From Cyanobacteriota bacterium (GTDB lineage Bacteria > Cyanobacteriota > Cyanobacteriia > PCC-6307 > Cyanobiaceae), in contig JBKDPV010000025.1 of NCBI GenBank assembly GCA_046342315.1, forward strand, positions 1,227-65,226: DNA of 64,000 nucleotides. The letters run 5' to 3'. This document shows positions 16,899 through 30,319 of the stretch, in pieces (position 1 is the first letter of the stretch; every line of letters starts with the position of its first letter). Under the pieces are notes generated by a model. It made no database searches, had not been told where the DNA came from, and was given only the letters and a program-made list of their open reading frames with translations. Position numbers and translations under genes: made by a program.

Positions 16899-18130
16899 TG
16901 GTGCCGCCCCCTTCATTGAGGCAGTCTCCAAGACTTCTGAGGCGGTTGCTCTTCAGCTACTGGCTGGGTTGCAGTTTATTGCTTGCTGTTGGTTTAGCTC
17001 TGTTTGATCTCTGGGAGCACCAGAGGCAGATCGTGAAGGAAGGTGAGCAAGCCGCCCAGGTTGTCAGTGCCAGTTTGCGGACGAATCTCACCAATCAGCA
17101 ACGTCAGCAGTTGCTTCAGGCCTATGGCCAGATGTATCAAGCCGAGCGATTCGATCGGATGAATCTGTTGCTGGTGGTTGATCTTACCGGACAGGTTGTC
17201 TACACCTCGCAGCCAGCATGGCGCTCTCTGCTGATCAGTGATCCCCTGTTTTACAAGCTCGCTCTCAACGATTTCGACTTTGGTAACGTTGTCGAGTGTT
17301 TTCGCGACAGGCCTAAAGAATGCATGGAGATCAGAAGTTTGAACTGGCATCTCCCTCTTTCCGGAATCACGGTGGTGCGCCCTGTTTCGATGCCTGCATT
17401 GGATCTTGGCTTGCCGCGCCGGCCGTTCCTGGTGCTCGTTAACTTTGATTCCGGCACGATGATCAGTGACTTGCTGCAGGATTTACCCGTTTTAATTGTG
17501 TGGGTGTGTCTGGTGTCTTCCTTGCTTGTGCTGGCCCTATGGTTTTGCGCTACCCGCCAATTTCTGCCCCAGTTGATCGCGGCTAGCCAGACCGATTCCC
17601 TTACCCAGCTGATCAACCGCACGTCATTCATGGAGAAGGCTGTCGATGTTCTTGCCGAGGCAGAAGAGCGGCGTGCCGAATTTGTGTTTGCCATCCTCGA
17701 TATCGACCACTTCAAGCGGATTAATGATACCTACGGTCACGGTTGTGGCGATGCAGCCCTTGCTGCGGTGGGCGCCTTGCTGCTTGCCGTTACCAGGCCT
17801 GACGACCTGGTGTGCCGCATGGGTGGTGAGGAATTTGCTCTGCTGCTTTCGATGCCCCGCCTGGGAGGAGCCAAGGCTTTGGAGCGGCTGCGCCTACAGC
17901 TTGAGATGAATCGCATCCTCTACAGTGGTCAGCAAGTTCCCCTTACCGCAAGCATAGGAGCTGCAGCTACTTCTGACTGCGGCTACAACATCGACTTTCT
18001 CTATAACGCAGCTGACAAGGCCCTCTACGTAGCCAAGAATGCCGGCCGTAACCTTGTTCAGTGGAATGATGGAGAGCTGATGAGCCGCCTGTCCATTTCA
18101 GATGCACCCTCTGCTGCAACGAGCAACTGA
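16895..18130 (+). CDS. Membrane-anchored diguanylate cyclase (GGDEF)
   Basis: DSLTQLINR, LDIDHFKRINDTYGHGCGD, RPDD I-site and GGEEF (17822-17836), KNAGRN; two TM helices flank an extracytoplasmic domain. Confidence 0.9.
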   Translation: MMVPPPSLRQSPRLLRRLLFSYWLGCSLLLAVGLALFDLWEHQRQIVKEGEQAAQVVSASLRTNLTNQQRQQLLQAYGQMYQAERFDRMNLLLVVDLTGQVVYTSQPAWRSLLISDPLFYKLALNDFDFGNVVECFRDRPKECMEIRSLNWHLPLSGITVVRPVSMPALDLGLPRRPFLVLVNFDSGTMISDLLQDLPVLIVWVCLVSSLLVLALWFCATRQFLPQLIAASQTDSLTQLINRTSFMEKAVDVLAEAEERRAEFVFAILDIDHFKRINDTYGHGCGDAALAAVGALLLAVTRPDDLVCRMGGEEFALLLSMPRLGGAKALERLRLQLEMNRILYSGQQVPLTASIGAAATSDCGYNIDFLYNAADKALYVAKNAGRNLVQWNDGELMSRLSISDAPSAATSN

Positions 18131-21816: not shown

Positions 21817-23123
21817 CCCCACCCACCGCCACGGCCCCCGAGACCGTCACCGCTCCCCTGATCCCGCCCTCCACCCATCGCTACGCCGATGTGATCCACC
21901 GGCTCGAGGCCGGCGGCTCGATGCTGCCGGACACGCCGGAGAACCTGATGCAGATCATCGGCATCTACAAGGCCTATGCCGTGCCGATGGACTTCTACTG
22001 GCGCGATCTGCTCTACATCGCCGAGCAGGTGTTCCTCGATCCCCTGCCGGCCTTCAAGTACTTCATCAGCCAGGAGTACCTCGATCTGCCCAATTCCTAC
22101 GCCGGCGATCAGTCGAAGCTGCGGATCTGGCGCGGTGGCGAGAAGGCCCACCCCGAACTGCTGGAGTTCATGGCCAAGGGGGAGTCGGGCAGGATGCCGA
22201 AGCTGCTCCATCACCTCTGGCACGACCGGATCAACATGGAGTTCGCCGAGGCCTGCATGGAGGCGATGCTCTGGCACCAGGGCATGGGCGGGCGCTTCTA
22301 CGACTATCTCGATTGCGACGCCTATCGCACCAACGCGGACCGGGCGATCAAGGCCTACTTCCGCGGCAATCCGCTGATGCTCGGCCTGTACAAGCTGTTC
22401 CCTGAGATGTTCATGGAGCAGGTGAAGAAGATGAGCTACTACGCCAACCTCGGCCTGTTCTGGGAGGTGATGGCACCGGTGTTCTTCGAGATGAGTGACA
22501 TCTACGACGAGGGAGGGTTCAAGGGTGTTCCCGACGCCATGAACTTCCTGGTGAACGGCATCTTCGCCGTAGCGGGCCGGCCGATCTACCACCACGTGTA
22601 CATCAAGGGGGAGTGTTTCGAGATCATCCCCAAGAGCGAAGGTTTCACCTGGCTCTACGAAGCGGCCCTGCCCTATGTGGAGGCCGTGTTCTACCGCACG
22701 GCACCCTTCCGCGGCACCAAGAGCTACAACGCCCAGGCCTACCAGGTGCCCTCCGATCAGGCCGATTTCCACTACGGCATCCTCTATGCCGACGTGTTCC
22801 CGGTGGGGTCGGCCGGCATCCCTCCCACCCTGCTGATGCAGGACATGCTGCACTTCCTCCCCCCCTATCTGGAGGATCTCTACAAACAGCACAAGCGTGG
22901 CGATGAGGACAAGCTCATCCAGCTGGGCATCACCTTCCAGCGCTCGATGTACAACGTCACCTCGGCGGTGATCCAGGCCCTGCGCTGCGCCCTGCTCTAT
23001 CCGCTCGATGACACCGATCCCGAGCACCTGATGGCGAACCGCCGCTTCTTCGAGGCCCAGATGGACCGCTTCCTGCGGCCGGAAGCCCGTCTGCCCCAGG
23101 TCCAGACCCAGGACTACCGCTGA
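21813..23123 (+). CDS. cupA: CO2 hydration protein CupA (ChpY)
   Basis: IHRLEAGGSMLPDTPENLMQIIGIYKAYAVPMDFYWRDLLYIAE; 436 aa, matching CupA rather than the shorter CupB. Confidence 0.92.
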   Translation: MTPPTATAPETVTAPLIPPSTHRYADVIHRLEAGGSMLPDTPENLMQIIGIYKAYAVPMDFYWRDLLYIAEQVFLDPLPAFKYFISQEYLDLPNSYAGDQSKLRIWRGGEKAHPELLEFMAKGESGRMPKLLHHLWHDRINMEFAEACMEAMLWHQGMGGRFYDYLDCDAYRTNADRAIKAYFRGNPLMLGLYKLFPEMFMEQVKKMSYYANLGLFWEVMAPVFFEMSDIYDEGGFKGVPDAMNFLVNGIFAVAGRPIYHHVYIKGECFEIIPKSEGFTWLYEAALPYVEAVFYRTAPFRGTKSYNAQAYQVPSDQADFHYGILYADVFPVGSAGIPPTLLMQDMLHFLPPYLEDLYKQHKRGDEDKLIQLGITFQRSMYNVTSAVIQALRCALLYPLDDTDPEHLMANRRFFEAQMDRFLRPEARLPQVQTQDYR

Positions 23124-23145
23124 TCCCGCCCCTCACCCCAACGCC

Positions 23146-23547
23146 ATGGCCAACATCATCGAAACCGCGAAGGGAGCGGGCTGCTTCGCCACCCTGCTCA
23201 CCGCCGTGGAGGTGGCGGGGCTCACCGGAGCCCTCGAGAGCCCAGGTCCCTTCACCGTCTTCGCTCCCGTCGACGACGCCTTCGCGGCCCTGCCTCCAGG
23301 CACGGTCCAGACCCTGGTGGACAACCCGCCCCAGCTGGCCAGGATCCTCAAGTTCCACGTGCTTGCCGGAGCCCACCACCGCAGCGAGCTGGTGACCCGG
23401 CCGGAGTGGCAGAGCCTGGAGGGCGCGCCTGTGGCCATCCGGCGAGCCGATCCCTTCGAGGTGAAGAACGCCACCGTGGTGAGCGCCGACATCGCTTGCG
23501 ACAACGGCGTGGTGCATGTGATCGACCGGGTGATCCTGCCCGGCTGA
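23146..23547 (+). CDS. cupS: Fasciclin-domain protein CupS
   Basis: FAS1 motifs GPFTVFAPVDDAF and NGVVHVIDRVILP; canonical position after cupA. Confidence 0.85.
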   Translation: MANIIETAKGAGCFATLLTAVEVAGLTGALESPGPFTVFAPVDDAFAALPPGTVQTLVDNPPQLARILKFHVLAGAHHRSELVTRPEWQSLEGAPVAIRRADPFEVKNATVVSADIACDNGVVHVIDRVILPG

Positions 23548-23639
23548 GCGAAGCCTGATCCGAGCGCAGCTGTCGCAGCCCCTATGACAGCATCATCGCC
23601 GCGGTCGCCGCCAGCGATGATCGGGACCTACCGGGAACC

Positions 23640-26180
23640 ATGAAGTTGCAGGCCGCTCGCCGACACAGCATCCTGGCCATCTTCGGAGCCCTGACGCTGG
23701 CAGGGTTGGTCGGTATCGCCCTGATCAGCTATCTGCGGGCCCGCAATTTCCTGCACCGACAGATCAGCGAAACCACACTGCCGCTCACCTCCGACACGAT
23801 CTATGCCGGGGTGGAGAACGATCTGCTCCAGCCGGTCCTCGCCTCCGGCCTGATGGCTCGCAACACCCTGCTGGCCGAAAAGCTGGCCCGCGGCCAGAGC
23901 GATCCCGAAAGGATCGCGGCCTACCTGCGCGGCGTCCAGGAGCGCACCGGGGCGGTCACGGCGTTTCTGGTGTCCGACCGCAGCCGCAGCTACCACCACC
24001 CGAGCGGCGTTCTCAAGCAGGTCTCACCTACCGATCCCCAGGATCGCTGGTACTACCGCTTCCGCGACTCCGGGCGCAATTTCGAGATCAACATCGACCG
24101 TGACACGGCCGACCTCCAGCGCACCACAGCCTTCATCAACGTGCGGTTGCTCGATACCGAGGGCGGCTTCCTCGGGGTTGTGGGCCTGGGTCTCGACATG
24201 CGCTCGCTCATGGCCCAGCTGCAGCGCTACCAAGAGCGCTACGGCGGCCGCATCCTGCTGCTGGACCAGCAGGGGCGGATCAAGCTGGCCGCCGACCGCA
24301 CGACCGGCAGCCTGGAGGACATCAAGGGCCTGGCCCCGCATCGAAAGCAGATCCTCTCGGCCCCTTCCCATACTCTGCATCTCGAGCGCACGGGGAGCGA
24401 CTCCTACGTCAGCAGTCGCCGCATCCCCGAACTGGACTGGCTGCTGGTGGTGCAGCAGTCGAGCAGCCTCGCCCAGCGCAGACTGGAAAATCTGCTGGCC
24501 CAGAATCTGATCGCCGCGGTGCTGGTCAGCCTGGTGCTGCTGTCCCTCGCCCAGCTCACGGTGGGCAGGCAGCAGCGTGAGCTGGAGCGACTGGCCAGCA
24601 CCGACAGCCTCACGGGCCTGCTCAACCGTTCCGCCTTCGAGCCCCTGTTCCTACGCCAGGTCGCTGAGGCCCGAAACCGCCGCGAACCCCTGGCGGTGGC
24701 TCTGATCGACATCGATCGCTTCAAGCAGGTGAATGATCACTTCGGCCATCCCCAGGGCGATCATGTGATCTGTCAGGTGGGCCGCCGGATCGTGCACCAC
24801 ATCCGCGTTGTTGATCTGCTCTTCCGTTGGGGCGGCGAGGAATTCCTGCTGCTCCTGCCGGGCTGTGCCATCCCCCGCGCCAAGGAGCTGCTCGAGAGGA
24901 TCCGCAGGGATCTGCACGATCAGCCCGTGTCCCTGCTCCACCAGAAAACGGTGCCACCATCCTCCGACCAGCTCCGGCCTGATCTGCTGCCGGTGACCAT
25001 CAGCATCGGTCTGAGTGTGCACCGATCAGAAGAATCCAGTGCCGAGCTGCTGCAACGGGTCGATGAGGCCCTCTACTGCGCCAAGCGCGGCGGGCGCAAC
25101 CGCCTCTGCACCGCCACGGCTCCGCTTCGCTGCATCGGCAGGCTGCTGGCGGCCCTTGGCGTTGGTCTGCTGGCGGTGGGTTGCCGTCCCGAGGCGGACG
25201 GAGTGCAGAGCTCCACGATGGGCAGGATTCGCGAGCGTGACCGCCTGATCTGCGCCGTGGACGGGGCTGTGCCGGGGTTCAGCAGCGTTGCCGCCTCCGG
25301 TCGCTATGAGGGGATCGATGTCGACTTCTGCCGGGCCGTCGCGGCGGCGCTGCTGGGCGATCCCGAGAAGGTCGACTTCCGCCCCGTCACCCCAGCCGAG
25401 CGGTTCGTCGCTCTCAACAGCGGCGAGGTGGATCTGCTCTCGATCAGCTCCACCCACACCCTCTCCCGCGATGCGCCGGGCGGGAATGCGCTGAGCTTCG
25501 GGCCCACCTTCTTCTATGACGGCCAGGGGGTGATGGTGCCGGCCGTCTCCGCCGTGCGTCGCCTGGCCGACCTGGCGGGCAAGCCGATCTGCGTGGAGAG
25601 CGGCACCAACACCGAGCTCAACCTGGCCGACCGCATGCGCGAACTGGGGCTCAGCTACCAGCCCCTGCGTTTCCAGTCGGGGGAGCAGGCCTACCCGGCC
25701 TACGAGCAGGGCCGCTGCGCGGCAATCACCAGCGACCGTTCGCTGCTGGCGGGCAAGCGCACCGGCTTCCGCAACCCCGCCGCCCACGTGCTGCTGCCGG
25801 AGTTGCTGAGCAAGGAACCCAGCGCCAAGGTCACGGTGCAGGGTGATCCGGTGTGGGCCGATGCGATCCGCTGGATCACCTTTGCCCTGTTCCAGGCCGA
25901 GGAGAGCGGCCTCACCCGGGCCACGGTCGCCGCGCGAGTGGCAGAGGCCCGGGCCCGGCCGGAGCAGGCGGAGTTGCGCCGGCTGCTGGGGGTGGAGGGG
26001 GATCTGGGCCGCCAGCTGGGGCTGCCCGACGACTTCGTGGTGCGGGTGGTGAAGGCCGTGGGCTCCTACGGCGAGCTGTTCGACCGCCACGTGGGCCCCG
26101 CCTCGCGGCTGGGCCTGGAGCGGGGCCCCAATCGCCTCTGGAACCAGGGCGGGCTCCACTTCCCGCCCCCCTTCCGCTGA
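23640..26180 (+). CDS. Cache-type sensor diguanylate cyclase fused in frame to an amino-acid ABC substrate-binding domain
   Basis: TM, extracytoplasmic domain (DRWYYRF, FLGVVGLG), TM, GGDEF (TDSLTGLLNR, DIDRFKQVNDHFGHPQGD, RVVD, GGEEF at 24831-24845, KRGGRN), hydrophobic LLAALGVGLLAVGC (25143-25184), then a full AapJ/NatF-like domain ending PPFR. Confidence 0.8.
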   Translation: MKLQAARRHSILAIFGALTLAGLVGIALISYLRARNFLHRQISETTLPLTSDTIYAGVENDLLQPVLASGLMARNTLLAEKLARGQSDPERIAAYLRGVQERTGAVTAFLVSDRSRSYHHPSGVLKQVSPTDPQDRWYYRFRDSGRNFEINIDRDTADLQRTTAFINVRLLDTEGGFLGVVGLGLDMRSLMAQLQRYQERYGGRILLLDQQGRIKLAADRTTGSLEDIKGLAPHRKQILSAPSHTLHLERTGSDSYVSSRRIPELDWLLVVQQSSSLAQRRLENLLAQNLIAAVLVSLVLLSLAQLTVGRQQRELERLASTDSLTGLLNRSAFEPLFLRQVAEARNRREPLAVALIDIDRFKQVNDHFGHPQGDHVICQVGRRIVHHIRVVDLLFRWGGEEFLLLLPGCAIPRAKELLERIRRDLHDQPVSLLHQKTVPPSSDQLRPDLLPVTISIGLSVHRSEESSAELLQRVDEALYCAKRGGRNRLCTATAPLRCIGRLLAALGVGLLAVGCRPEADGVQSSTMGRIRERDRLICAVDGAVPGFSSVAASGRYEGIDVDFCRAVAAALLGDPEKVDFRPVTPAERFVALNSGEVDLLSISSTHTLSRDAPGGNALSFGPTFFYDGQGVMVPAVSAVRRLADLAGKPICVESGTNTELNLADRMRELGLSYQPLRFQSGEQAYPAYEQGRCAAITSDRSLLAGKRTGFRNPAAHVLLPELLSKEPSAKVTVQGDPVWADAIRWITFALFQAEESGLTRATVAARVAEARARPEQAELRRLLGVEGDLGRQLGLPDDFVVRVVKAVGSYGELFDRHVGPASRLGLERGPNRLWNQGGLHFPPPFR

Positions 26181-26259
26181 GGCCGCCCGGCGCTCCGACC
26201 CGGGGAGCGCCGCCGGCCGCGGACACCTGCAACAATGCGGCCACCTCTAGCCCCCCCGG

Positions 26260-27321
26260 ATGTCCCGTCACTGGATCCGCGCTCTGCCGGTCTCCCTTCT
26301 CGGCCTCGGCCTGCTCGCCGGCTGCGCGCCCGAGGGTGGTGGCTTGCAGAGCACCAAGATGGCTGCGATCCAGAGCCGGGGCAAGCTGATCTGCGGCGTG
26401 GAGGGCAAGCTCCCCGGTTTCAGCTTTGTCCTGCCCTCCGGCCAGTACGCAGGCCTCGACGTGGACGTGTGCAAGGCGGTGGCGGCCGCGGTTCTGGGGG
26501 ATCCCTCGAAGGTGGAATACCGCGACCTCAACTCCAGCGAGCGCTTCGCCGCCCTGGCCAGCGGCGAGGTGGATCTGCTCTCGCGCAACACCACCATGAC
26601 CCTCAGCCGCGACGCGGCCGGTGGCAACGGCCTGAGCTTCGCTCCCACCACCTTCTATGACGGCCAGGGCGTGCTGGTGCCGGTGGCCAGCGGCATCAAG
26701 GACCTGAAGGGTCTCGCCGGCAAGCCGATCTGCGTAGAGAGCGGCACCACCACCGAGCTCAACCTGGCGGACCGGATGCGCGAGCAGAACATCCCCTACA
26801 CGCCGCTCAAGTTCCAGACCAGCGACCAGACCTTCGCCGCCTATCTCGGCGGCCGCTGCGTCGCCGTCACCAGCGACCGCTCCCAGCTGGCGGGCAAGCG
26901 CACCAGCTTCCCCAAGCCGGATGAGCACACCCTCCTGCCCGACGTGATGAGCAAGGAGCCGCTCACCCCGGCCACCACCAATGCCGATCCCGCCTGGGCC
27001 GATGCGGTCCGCTGGATCGTCAACGGCCTCTTCCAGGCCGAGGAGAGCGGGATCACCCAGGCCAACATCGACGCCAAGGTGGCCGAGGCCAAGGCCAACA
27101 CCAACCAGGCCGACCTGCGCCGCTTCCTCGGCGTCGAAGGTGATTTCGGCAAGCAGCTCGGGCTTCCCGCCGACTTCGTCGTCAAGGCGGTGAAGGCCGC
27201 CGGCAACTACGGCGAGATCTTCGATCGCAACGTCGGTCCGAAGTCGGCCCTCAAGCTCGACCGGGGCCTCAACCGGCAGTGGAAGGACGGCGGCCTGATC
27301 TACTCGCCTCCCTTCCGCTGA
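26260..27321 (+). CDS. natF: Amino-acid ABC transporter substrate-binding lipoprotein (NatF/AapJ/BztA family)
   Basis: Lipobox LLAGC; SRNTTMTLSRD, FYDGQG, TSDRSQL, MSKEPL and GNYGEIFDRN. Confidence 0.88.
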   Translation: MSRHWIRALPVSLLGLGLLAGCAPEGGGLQSTKMAAIQSRGKLICGVEGKLPGFSFVLPSGQYAGLDVDVCKAVAAAVLGDPSKVEYRDLNSSERFAALASGEVDLLSRNTTMTLSRDAAGGNGLSFAPTTFYDGQGVLVPVASGIKDLKGLAGKPICVESGTTTELNLADRMREQNIPYTPLKFQTSDQTFAAYLGGRCVAVTSDRSQLAGKRTSFPKPDEHTLLPDVMSKEPLTPATTNADPAWADAVRWIVNGLFQAEESGITQANIDAKVAEAKANTNQADLRRFLGVEGDFGKQLGLPADFVVKAVKAAGNYGEIFDRNVGPKSALKLDRGLNRQWKDGGLIYSPPFR

Positions 27322-28337
27322 TGGCCGTCGAGCCGTCTCCCCCCCGCCCGGAAGCCTCCGGGGGCGTCACTCCCTGGTGGCGCGACCGCCGGGTTGTGCC
27401 CTGGGTCGTGCAGGCTGCCGTGGGTCTGGTGGTGCTGCTGGCGATCGCCTTCCTGCTGGGCAACCTGGTGCGCAACCTCACCGCCGCCGGTCTGCTGCTG
27501 AGCTGGCGCTGGCTGAACCAGCCCGCCGGCTTCGACATCTCCGAATCGCTGATCCCCTTCAACGCTCAGCTGCCCTACTGGCGTGCTCTGGCGGCGGGCC
27601 TGGTGAACACGATCCGGGCCGTGCTGGTGGGTCTGGTGGGCGCCACCCTGCTGGGCACCCTGGTGGGCATGGCCTCCTTCAGCCACAACGGCCTGCTCAA
27701 GCGCCTTGCCCGCATCTACGTGGAGGTGGTGCGCAACATCCCGCTGCTCCTGCAGCTGGTGTTCTGGTATTTCGTGGTGTTCCTCACCCTCCCCAACGGG
27801 GCGGCTGCCCTGCAGCTGCCGGGGATCGTACTGGCCAAGTCGGGCCTCTACTTGGCCGGGCTGGGAGAGGGTCTGCGTTGGCTGGGTCCACAGCTGGTGA
27901 ATGGCGTCTGGCAGGCCCCGATCCGGCTCACGGTGGAATTCGCGGCCCTGCTCACCGGCCTGATCGTGTATTCCGGCGCCTTCATCGCCGAAGTGGTGCG
28001 CGGCGGCCTGGCGGCGGTGCCCAAGGGGCAGTGGGAGGCGGCCTCCTCCCTGGGCCTGGGCTGGTTCGCCACCCTGCGCCACATCGTGCTGCCCCAGTCG
28101 CTGCGGGTGATCGTGCCCGGCCTCAACACCCAGTACATCTCCCTGGCCAAGAACTCCTCCCTGGCGGTGGCGGTGGGCTACACCGATCTCTATTCCGTGG
28201 CCGAAACCACCCTCAACCAGACCGGCCGTGCGGTGGAGGTGGTGCTGGTGCTGCTGGCCGCCTACCTCACTCTCGATCTGCTGATCTCGCTGCTGATGAA
28301 CGGCCTCAACCATCTCGTGCAGATCAAGGAGCGCTGA
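27321..28337 (+). CDS. natG: Amino-acid ABC transporter permease (NatG/AapQ family)
   Basis: YVEVVRNIPLLLQL, AEVVRGG...KGQWEAA (EAA motif) and KNSSLAVAVGY. Confidence 0.88.
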   Translation: MAVEPSPPRPEASGGVTPWWRDRRVVPWVVQAAVGLVVLLAIAFLLGNLVRNLTAAGLLLSWRWLNQPAGFDISESLIPFNAQLPYWRALAAGLVNTIRAVLVGLVGATLLGTLVGMASFSHNGLLKRLARIYVEVVRNIPLLLQLVFWYFVVFLTLPNGAAALQLPGIVLAKSGLYLAGLGEGLRWLGPQLVNGVWQAPIRLTVEFAALLTGLIVYSGAFIAEVVRGGLAAVPKGQWEAASSLGLGWFATLRHIVLPQSLRVIVPGLNTQYISLAKNSSLAVAVGYTDLYSVAETTLNQTGRAVEVVLVLLAAYLTLDLLISLLMNGLNHLVQIKER

Positions 28338-28338
28338 G

Positions 28339-29550
28339 ATGCAAGCCCTGATCCGCCGCCTGCGCAGCGAGCTGTTCGCCACACCGGCCGACGCTGTGAT
28401 CAGCGTCACCCTGCTCACGATCCTGGCGGCGGCTGCGGCCGGCTTCCTGCACTGGGCGCTCCGTCAGGCCGAGTGGGCCGTGGTGCAGGTGAACAGCACC
28501 CTGTTCGCCGTAGGCCGCTACCCGATCGAGCAGCAGTGGCGCCTGTGGTTGCTCACCGCCCTGCTCGCCGCCGCCACCGGGGCCACCTGGGGCATGCTGC
28601 GGGCCCATCCCCGGCGCGACCGCAGCGGCCAGCTCTGGCCCCGCAACGACCGGCTCGCGGTGGCCGTGCTGATCGCGGTCGCCCTCTGGGTTCCCTTCAC
28701 CTTGGGGCTCACCCCTGCGATCCAGCTGCGCTGGTGGGGCCTGACGGCCCTGCTGGTGGTGGCCCGCTGGCTGGCGGGCCGGTTCGGGGCCGGCCTGTCT
28801 CCTGCCGTCAAGAAAGTGCTGCCGATCGTCTGGCCCGTGCTCTACCTGGTGGGCATGGTGCTGATCGGTGGCGGCCTGGGGCTGGCCCGGGTGGCCCCCG
28901 CCGAGTGGGGCGGTCTGCTGCTCACCCTGCTGGCGTCGAGCTTCGCGATCCTGCTCTGCCTGCCGATCGGTGTGCTGCTGGCCCTGGGCCGCCGCAGCGA
29001 CCTGCCCCTGCTGCGCTGGGGTTCGGTGCTCTACATCGAGTTCATCCGCGGCGCCCCGCTGATCACCCTGCTGTTCCTCGGCCAGAACATCCTCGGCTTC
29101 CTGCTGCCCGGCGGTCTGGCGCCGGATCGGGTGTGGCGGGCGGCCTGGGTGCTCACCTTCTTCGCTGCCGCTTACCTGGCCGAGGCGGTGCGCTCCGGCC
29201 TGGCGGCGGTGCCCCGGGGCCAGCTGGAGGCGGCCCGCTCCCTCGGCCTCTCTTCGGCCCAGGCGCTGCGGCTGGTGGTGCTGCCCCAGGCCCTGCGGGT
29301 GGCCCTGCCGGCGATGGTGGGGCAGTTCATCTCCCTGCTGCAGGACACCACGCTGCTGTCGCTGATCGGCCTGCTCGATCTGCTCGGCGTGGCCCGCACC
29401 GTGATGGCCAACCCGGCCTTCCTGGGGCGCAACGCCGAGGTGTACCTCACCCTGGCGATCCTGTTCTGGTGCTGCTGCGCGGCCCTGGGCCTGGGCAGCC
29501 GGGCGCTGGAGCGCCGCCTCGACCCCCATGCCGTGCCGTCACGCGTCTGA
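28339..29550 (+). CDS. natH: Amino-acid ABC transporter permease (NatH/AapM family)
   Basis: YIEFIRGAPLITLLF, AEAVRSGL...GQLEAA and QDTTL. Confidence 0.86.
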   Translation: MQALIRRLRSELFATPADAVISVTLLTILAAAAAGFLHWALRQAEWAVVQVNSTLFAVGRYPIEQQWRLWLLTALLAAATGATWGMLRAHPRRDRSGQLWPRNDRLAVAVLIAVALWVPFTLGLTPAIQLRWWGLTALLVVARWLAGRFGAGLSPAVKKVLPIVWPVLYLVGMVLIGGGLGLARVAPAEWGGLLLTLLASSFAILLCLPIGVLLALGRRSDLPLLRWGSVLYIEFIRGAPLITLLFLGQNILGFLLPGGLAPDRVWRAAWVLTFFAAAYLAEAVRSGLAAVPRGQLEAARSLGLSSAQALRLVVLPQALRVALPAMVGQFISLLQDTTLLSLIGLLDLLGVARTVMANPAFLGRNAEVYLTLAILFWCCCAALGLGSRALERRLDPHAVPSRV

Positions 29551-29569
29551 CCCCCTCCTCCATCCACCG

Positions 29570-30319
29570 ATGAGCCATCCCACCAGTGAGACGATGATCG
29601 AGGCCCGCGGGGTCGAGAAGTGGTACCCCAACGGTTTCCACGCCCTGCGCGGTGCCGACCTCACCGTGCGGCGCGGCGAGGTGGTGGTGATCATGGGCCC
29701 TTCGGGTTCGGGCAAGAGCACCTTCATCCGCACCTTCAATGCCCTGGAGGATTTCCAGAAGGGCAGCATCACCGTCGATGGCATCGCCCTCTCCAACGAC
29801 CTGCGCAACATCGATGCGATCCGCCGCGAGGTGGGCATGGTGTTCCAGCAGTTCAACCTTTTCCCGCACCTCTCGGTGATGGATAACCTCACCCTGGCGC
29901 CGGTGCTGGTGCGCAAGCGCCCGAAGGCGGAGGTTTCGGAGCAGGCGCGGGCGCTTCTGGAGCGTGTCGGCATCGCCGAGCAGGCCGACAAGTTCCCCGG
30001 CCAGCTTTCGGGCGGCCAGCAGCAGCGGGTGGCGATCGCCCGGGCGTTGTGCATGGAGCCGCGCATCCTGCTGTTCGACGAACCCACCAGCGCCCTCGAT
30101 CCGGAGATGGTGCGTGAGGTGCTGGAGGTGATGCAGAACCTCGCCGCCGACGACATCACGATGGTGGTGGTCACCCACGAGGTGAAGTTCGCCCGCCATG
30201 TGGCCCATCGCGTGGTGCTGATGGCCGATGGGGTGGTCGTGGAGGAAGCGCCCCCAGAAACCTTCTTCACCAACCCGGCTCACGAGCGCACCCGCCGGTT
30301 CCTCGATCAGATTCTGTGA
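29570..30319 (+). CDS. Polar amino-acid ABC transporter ATP-binding protein
   Basis: GPSGSGKS Walker A, LSGGQQQRVAIARAL signature, LLFDEPTSALDPE; ATG at 29570. Confidence 0.93.
   Translation: MSHPTSETMIEARGVEKWYPNGFHALRGADLTVRRGEVVVIMGPSGSGKSTFIRTFNALEDFQKGSITVDGIALSNDLRNIDAIRREVGMVFQQFNLFPHLSVMDNLTLAPVLVRKRPKAEVSEQARALLERVGIAEQADKFPGQLSGGQQQRVAIARALCMEPRILLFDEPTSALDPEMVREVLEVMQNLAADDITMVVVTHEVKFARHVAHRVVLMADGVVVEEAPPETFFTNPAHERTRRFLDQIL

Follow-up and report, generated by a model that had tools for sequence, protein, structure and literature searches.

A small deletion across an ATGA overlap has fused a diguanylate cyclase gene to the amino-acid-binding lipoprotein gene natF2 in one Cyanobiaceae lineage

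In a 64 000-nucleotide stretch of a Cyanobacteriota genome (contig JBKDPV010000025.1 of assembly GCA_046342315.1, family Cyanobiaceae; hereafter the window), one open reading frame (ORF) at 23640–26180 on the forward strand joins a membrane-bound diguanylate cyclase to an amino-acid-binding protein, NatF2, and stays open for all 846 codons. Comparison with relatives indicates that this fusion is a recent strain-level accident, in which the full cyclase is read straight into NatF2 residues 8–361. On balance we favor a young, strain-level, nearly neutral allele in which both ancestral functions are kept; the export and cleavage that this would involve we infer. The first-pass annotation of the window had offered three readings, namely a receptor with two periplasmic sensors, a polyprotein cleaved by signal peptidase II, and a recent accidental fusion. 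For the origin of the gene the last of these stands, given the ATGA in all close relatives and the 20-bp gap described below, and a conserved dual-sensor receptor does not. In the cell, the accidental product may be a tethered protein with three transmembrane (TM) segments or a signal peptidase II polyprotein.

The DNA at the junction reads gcc aag cgc ggc ggg cgc aac cgc ctc tgc acc gcc acg gct ccg ctt cgc tgc atc ggc agg ctg ctg ... gcg gtg ggt tgc, with neither a stop codon nor an ATG and with a lone in-frame GTG two codons ahead of Cys515, just as the first-pass annotation had read it. Close relatives (L021, FGCU52, FGCU6, L027-30, and L022) instead carry two separate genes that meet in an ATGA stop/start overlap, ...RLCTA* / MSTPHTTTAPLRC..., a finding that argues against a conserved, designed three-TM receptor. 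We aligned the window's junction with those of L021, L031 (Cyanobium sp. FGCU52), L027, and L022 (alignments A1 and A2). All four aligned unfused relatives read ...CTC TGC AYC RCA TGA and, in the other frame, ATG AGC ACA CCG CAC ACC ACC ACG GCT..., whereas the window reads ...CTC TGC ACC GCC ACG GCT..., and exactly 20 bp (cATGAgcacaccgcacacca) are gone. The resulting scar lies at 25113–25116 on the forward strand, with the break between 25114 and 25115 (1 nt of ambiguity). The missing tract held the cyclase stop codon TGA, the overlapping natF2 ATG, and natF2 codons 2–7. Since 20 = 3 × 7 − 1, its loss also sets the two frames in register, and the 492 residues of the cyclase plus NatF2 residues 8–361 (354 residues) make up the 846 aa. 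We rejected replication slippage between the CACCGCA repeats of the ancestral tract, which would remove 13 nt rather than 20 (microhomology at the break is just 1 nt), and also phase variation, since non-repetitive sequence that has lost 20 bp does not revert.

Gene calls on the relatives' contigs give a cyclase of 474–492 aa followed by a 361-aa binding protein, with a 4-nt overlap. Contigs of the nearest cyclase relatives carry cupS, the cyclase gene, and the binding-protein gene, an order found also in FGCU52 (L031) and in a JGI haplotype (L027-L030) present on nine contigs; in Cyanobium sp. FGCU6 the junction is likewise of unfused length. For L027-L030, the JGI calls begin natF2 at a downstream Leu codon (4515 in L027; P0122, 348 aa) despite the presence of the ATG of the ATGA, and P0122 thereby cuts short the predicted signal peptide. 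A scan of 23000–26400 for promoters and terminators returned nothing informative.

The fused allele is almost certainly real. An exact-sequence look-up found the identical 846-aa protein in NCBI, JGI, and ENA data, on at least six contigs, and we compared four of these with the window: the metagenome-assembled genome GCA_046342395.1, the SPAdes assemblies ERZ4201057 and ERZ4239548, and the JGI metagenome 3300057174. The fused gene shows 0 differences over 2541 nt in all four, and the block from cupS to natF also matches the window exactly. In the flanks, differences from the window come in dense local patches: chpX carries 8–25 substitutions within about 100–360 bp, an ndh gene is 18% divergent in one contig, and natG has 28 substitutions in another. 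These patches resemble recombination tracts, or switches between strains inside metagenome assemblies. Because the flanks differ, the fused contigs are not copies of one record, and the deletion was recovered by at least five independent assemblies of different material. We take the allele to belong to a near-clonal lineage. Its closest unfused counterpart, contig L021, is 97% identical in nucleotide sequence and 1.4–2.2% different in the same genes, and the fusion is thus polymorphic at about the species level. Against L023, L024, and L026, the patches lie at 21819–21941, 22730–23090, and 28187–28569 of the window.

How widespread the arrangement is was addressed at several scales. Searched in six frames with each half, 40 related genomes yielded, for the C-terminal half, stand-alone natF2 orthologs of 72–78% identity as tandem neighbors of natF in ten genomes of the same genus, all with the order cupS-natF2-natF and no cyclase gene between; for the N-terminal half they yielded one ortholog only, of 50% identity and at another locus. 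Thus natF2 is present in about 10 of 24 other same-genus genomes, and the cyclase occupies this locus in none of the 24. Among 5.8 billion protein clusters, the proteins closest to the cyclase half are 98% and 86% identical, are 474–492 aa long, and end in ...RLCTA or ...RLCIA. A scan of genome contigs for the junction placed the cyclase between cupS and natF2 only in the window's species and in Cyanobium sp. FGCU6 and FGCU52, both of them unfused, the remaining hits being four chance matches in unrelated bacteria. More distant cyclase orthologs (50–55% identity) share another neighborhood, mutY-like/diguanylate cyclase/2OG-FeII_Oxy_5/sigma-70, which points to relocation or acquisition of the copy beside cupS. 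This mutY-type neighborhood was seen at L012 1437–2942, at L032/L033 4001–5596, and on a contig of JGI 3300059473.

The pairing of GGDEF (PF00990) and SBP_bac_3 (PF00497) in one protein was absent from the best 120 of the 5.8 billion clusters, and no match to both halves occurred among the best 150 of 1.84 billion 50%-identity representatives. GGDEF was likewise absent from 20 scanned multi-stretch representatives, whose partner domains were Ser/Thr kinase, caspase, PASTA, RTX, and PD40. Within reach of these searches, the architecture is, as far as the sequences tell, unique to this allele. Recurrence in independent genomes, by which the first-pass annotation had proposed to check the fusion, was found neither among these best hits nor in the scan of genome contigs, and a GGDEF-TM-binding-protein architecture conserved across independent lineages is accordingly not borne out by the sequences. 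NatF-like domains do stand at the C-terminus of Ser/Thr kinase, caspase-domain, PASTA, PD40, and RTX proteins (P0211, P0252, P0143, P0213, P0135, and P0154), and repeated copies also occur within giant proteins reaching 6571 aa. Clustering at 90% identity used the chimera to merge 492-aa cyclases and 361-aa binding proteins in one cluster of 56 members (P0002).

The order TM-Cache-TM-GGDEF-signal-binding protein that the first-pass annotation assigned to the 846-aa frame agrees with the ORF, the Pfam matches, and the hydropathy profile (all features below are on the forward strand). Residues 1–492 (23640–25115) constitute a complete cyclase, equal in extent to the 492-aa protein that relatives encode on its own; of these stand-alone proteins, P0123, P0129, and P0134 (492 aa) have the C-termini ...RLCTA or ...RLCTT. 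A basic N-terminus (MKLQAARRH) precedes TM1 (residues 11–29, 23670–23726; KD19 hydropathy peak 2.59; a helix in the AlphaFold2 model). Between the two hydrophobic peaks lies a dCache_1 sensor domain (PF02743, residues 43–271, 23766–24452; 49.2 bits versus a cut-off of 45), predicted to be periplasmic, whose nearest solved relative comes from the purine chemoreceptor McpH (ligand-binding domain, PDB 8BMV, E 2.4e-22); it has TDPQDRWYY where YDPRxRPWY is usual. TM2 (residues 290–308, 24507–24563; KD19 peak 2.50) is modeled by AlphaFold2 within a helix spanning 277–320, which would run on as a helical stalk toward the GGDEF domain. That domain (PF00990, residues 319–488, 24594–25103; 135.1 bits versus a cut-off of 23.8; PleD 1W25 match, E 3e-26) is predicted to be cytoplasmic, and its motifs are all intact: DIDRFKQVND at 357–366, the I-site RVVD (RxxD) at 389–392, five residues upstream of GGEEF at 398–402, and AKRGGRN at 481–487.

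The former NatF2 lipoprotein signal peptide, recognized by its identity to unfused orthologs, is now internal at residues 493–514 (25116–25181). It consists of TAPLRCIGR followed by LLAALGVGLLAVG and then Cys515, and is identical to residues 8–29 of unfused P0125 and P0131. The segment 496–514 gives a weaker hydropathy peak (KD19 1.74 in the 19-residue scan), with a net charge of +4 just upstream. The sole lipobox-like match in the 846 aa, ALGVGLLAVGC, ends at Cys515 and fits the PROSITE-type lipobox pattern; the first-pass annotation had considered AVGC degenerate, a view at odds with the identical LLAVGC of unfused P0125, P0131, and L021. Like the signal of a lipoprotein precursor, LAVG/C515 is preceded by an uncharged h-region; unlike it, the signal peptide is not N-terminal, standing at 493–514 of 846 aa. 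Cys515 and the mature AapJ/NatF-type binding domain occupy residues 515–846, which with the stop codon span 25182–26180. SBP_bac_3 (PF00497) starts at residue 536 (42.8 bits versus a cut-off of 26.4), and the amino-acid-binding protein PDB 4Z9N matches residues 525–846 (E 2.5e-82). In an AlphaFold2 model of the full chimera, both halves are predicted with pLDDT >90, and the two TM helices and all three domains with confidence (pTM 0.49); residues 496–519 have pLDDT <50 and are not modeled as a helix, and the model conveys nothing about the junction or domain packing.

The alignments show how the fusion arose, and from the features above we propose a fate for its product. In the clade of the window's species and Cyanobium sp. 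FGCU6 and FGCU52, a 492-codon dCache_1-GGDEF gene stands between cupS and natF2, ATGA-coupled to natF2; in the window's lineage a 20-bp deletion took the TGA, the ATG, and natF2 codons 2–7, shifting the frame by the needed offset. The chimera would insert with its N-terminus inside, so as to place TM1, a periplasmic dCache domain, TM2, and a cytoplasmic GGDEF domain in turn. The former signal peptide, with a basic n-region in the cytoplasm and a 13-residue h-region oriented N-in/C-out, could re-engage Sec as an internal start-transfer segment; TM1 and TM2 would already keep the ribosome at the translocon, and the binding domain would be exported. Export of that domain is plausible in view of the +4 charge, the N-in/C-out orientation, and a ribosome held at the translocon. 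Lgt and LspA would then lipidate and cut at C515, leaving a normal mature NatF2 and a cyclase with one extra C-terminal helix. As the lipobox is unchanged, we tentatively take this cleavage to be the single most likely fate. Retention of the binding domain by the segment as a tether, with no lipid anchor, seems unlikely to us, and we would not expect the product to be unexported or unstable, a fate taken up below. Because both ancestral functions would persist if the product is cleaved or tethered, the allele would be nearly neutral, which would account for its persistence in the wild. The low AlphaFold2 confidence at the junction is the usual look of predicted signal peptides rather than of stable TM helices.

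Across the clade, pairwise ratios of non-synonymous to synonymous change (pN/pS) are 0.21–0.39 for the cyclase and 0.08–0.27 for natF2, and both genes are thus normally constrained. Of changes private to a single branch, the window branch has 9 non-synonymous and 6 synonymous in its cyclase part, similar to the 13 and 8 of the FGCU52 branch; in natF2 the two branches have 3 and 9, and 6 and 19, respectively. No signal of decay is seen on the window branch, in counts that are small and not placeable before or after the deletion.

Several points weigh against a nearly neutral fusion that is cleaved and keeps both functions. The literature searched contains no documented action of Lgt or LspA on an internal lipobox and no precedent for a signal peptidase II polyprotein. 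For a membrane segment that is to be stable, the h-region is short and low in hydrophobicity (KD 1.74 versus about 2.5 for TM1 and TM2), and only ∼9 residues separate the last GGDEF strand (489–491) from the new membrane segment. Anchoring at two ends could hinder the GGDEF dimerization needed for catalysis, if the segment stays embedded. The look-up that found the fused contigs was by exact protein identity and would miss variants of the fusion. As the fused copies are all identical, the substitutions on the window branch may all pre-date the deletion, leaving post-deletion selection unreadable.

The foremost alternative is loss of function, with a chimera that is not exported or is unstable, a strain that is effectively natF2-null with its cyclase perhaps impaired, and natF and other diguanylate cyclases covering for both. 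This would fit a natF2 left without a usable start codon (ATG is absent, and the lone GTG comes after the h-region), an h-region that makes a poor TM segment and is given no helix by AlphaFold2, and the accessory standing of both genes (natF2 in about 10 of 24 same-genus genomes, the cyclase at this locus in 0 of 24). The cyclase part of the window branch, with its 9:6 ratio, is also compatible with it, and an allele with zero diversity among fused copies would be too young for visible decay. Yet all 846 codons are open, with the catalytic and lipobox motifs all intact; several samples contain the allele, with flanks that have recombined; purifying selection on natF2 in the clade (pN/pS 0.08–0.27) makes its loss unlikely to be wholly free; and the internal segment retains all signal-peptide features, with the ribosome brought to the membrane by TM1 and TM2. 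We rate this explanation as a serious though unlikely one.

We think it improbable that the protein is a nascent three-TM receptor, in which the tethered binding domain, alone or docked on dCache, would tune the GGDEF domain and so link amino-acid supply to cyclic di-GMP (c-di-GMP) beside the CO2-uptake operon. The topology would be self-consistent, with both sensors outside and GGDEF inside; NatF-like C-terminal extracytoplasmic modules occur in other signaling proteins (the Ser/Thr kinase P0211 and the caspase-domain proteins P0252 and P0143); and an identical fused block amid differing flanks could mean a sweep. However, clonality combined with the import of tracts, or the mixing of strains during metagenome assembly, explains that block equally well. 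The fusion goes back to one 20-bp accident in a single near-clonal allele, without independent recurrence in the protein-cluster and genome-contig searches, and no adaptive changes are found near the junction, where the signal peptide and lipobox are as in the unfused state and favor cleavage over tethering. Little weight, if slightly more, goes to the broader prospect that the allele is either the first known internal-lipobox polyprotein processed by Lgt and signal peptidase II or a new amino-acid-tuned three-TM cyclase, spreading in wild Cyanobium beside the inducible CO2-uptake operon.

An assembly or sequencing artefact, by which two genes in reality lost 20 bp in assembly, would suit the fragmented state of the window's assembly (131 contigs, 94% complete) and the CA-rich, low-complexity deleted tract. 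It is nevertheless very improbable: the same deletion is present in at least four other contigs from different pipelines and samples with non-identical flanks, clean 20-bp deletions are not a typical product of short-read assemblers, and the tract assembles without trouble in contigs of unfused sister strains. The least credible account is internal initiation at a rare start (ATC at Ile499 or CTG at Leu501/502, in frame just ahead of the h-region) to give a short pre-lipoprotein, MGRLLAALGVGLLAVGC..., which, if begun at Ile499, would retain one Arg together with the h-region and the lipobox, since ATC and CTG are very weak start codons, the GC-rich coding region upstream offers neither a Shine-Dalgarno-like sequence nor an A/U-rich leader, and no stop is left for termination-reinitiation, the mechanism of the ancestral ATGA arrangement.

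The chimera can be set beside known systems. Stand-alone dCache_1-GGDEF cyclases of Cyanobium and Synechococcus (P0123 and P0134), annotated as 'sensor domain-containing diguanylate cyclase', are collinear with residues 1–492 (nearest 86–98% identical) and share the two TMs, dCache_1, GGEEF, and the RxxD I-site; they end in ...RLCTA, whereas the window's frame runs 354 residues further. Sensor cyclases with a periplasmic binding-protein-like domain N-terminal to GGDEF offer the same pairing of an amino-acid-type fold with a GGDEF output; in the chimera the domain order is reversed, the membrane passes are three versus two, and a dCache sensor is added. The fbcH cytochrome b-c1 precursor of Bradyrhizobium japonicum, which is conserved, is reportedly cut at an internal signal peptide by signal peptidase I. 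It resembles the chimera in that a polytopic membrane protein is followed by an in-frame export signal and a periplasmic domain, and differs in its peptidase, the chimera having a lipobox (a putative signal peptidase II site) instead.

The C-terminal part belongs with NatF/AapJ-type lipoproteins of the PAAT family: residues 515–846 are about 60% identical to natF and 72–93% identical to stand-alone natF2. In NatF-type precursors the signal peptide is N-terminal, and in the chimera it stands behind 492 foreign residues with its first 7 residues gone. Cognate permease and ATPase genes adjoin downstream, as in Anabaena NatFGH-BgtA (PMC4500139). Substrate-binding domains fused to membrane proteins function in OpuA (PMC7673798), GlnPQ (PMC8025302), and Anabaena BgtB (PMC4500139). 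The chimera, if tethered, would resemble these in having a family-3 or related binding domain on the outer face of the membrane, with a polypeptide link instead of a lipid. Their partner is their own permease and the fusion is conserved; in the chimera the partner is an unrelated signaling enzyme and there is one allele.

The locus itself adjoins a CO2-uptake operon. A ChpXY (CupA-type) gene precedes cupS, the fusion's upstream neighbor (23146–23547, forward strand), which encodes a 133-aa fasciclin-fold subunit of NDH-1MS (Pfam Fasciclin, 119.6 bits; full-length matches to PDB 2MXA and 6TJV chain Q, E about 1e-43). These matches uphold the first-pass annotation's placing of cupS directly upstream. 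Its statement that a second diguanylate cyclase gene stands near the operon was also correct, with another GGDEF match in the window at about 17426–18058 in a six-frame search. Same-genus genomes lacking the cyclase have the order chpX-cupS-natF2-natF, in which the cupS TGA overlaps the natF2 ATG (..GGATGA..); the genes natF2-natF-natG-natH-bgtA are thus contiguous and translationally coupled with the ndhF3/ndhD3/cupA/cupS operon there. This overlap was seen in L002, L004, L007, L008, and L009 (natF2 ATG at about nt 1483–1540) and in L003 (2559–2562).

Downstream of the fusion, also on the forward strand, follow the canonical paralog natF (26260–27321, 353 aa, lipobox LLAGC), to which the C-terminal half is about 60% identical, and, for the same ATP-binding cassette importer, the permease genes natG and natH and a bgtA-like ATPase gene (27279–30319; two BPD_transp_1 matches and ABC_tran). 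The first-pass annotation had called that half a NatF paralog, in line with this identity and with the 4Z9N match. The importer genes natF, natG, natH, and bgtA are intact; the natF2 domain, having no start codon and being in frame with the cyclase, is not made from its own start. In Anabaena, NatF serves as the binding protein of the N-II system, whose substrates are acidic and neutral polar amino acids (PMC4500139). Judging from their sequences, natF2 and natF may bind different amino acids. The mature natF2 domain (25182–26177) has GAVPGFS and SISSTH where natF (26260–27321) has GKLPGFS and SRNTTM; the window's natF2 keeps TSDRS, and FGCU52 has TSDSS.

The fusion is a real and ordinary kind of event with an unusual architecture, a biologically minor within-species allele joining two accessory genes. 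As a clean and dated case, it illustrates how multidomain signaling proteins can arise: a single short deletion spanning an ATGA overlap yielded a topologically coherent chimera, coherent because the downstream gene carried its own export signal. For annotation it counsels caution: the architecture should not be passed on as if it defined a receptor family, and the merged 90%-identity cluster is a trap for automated annotation. As an allele found in nature, it also provides ready material on the question of whether an internal lipobox can be processed by Lgt and LspA.

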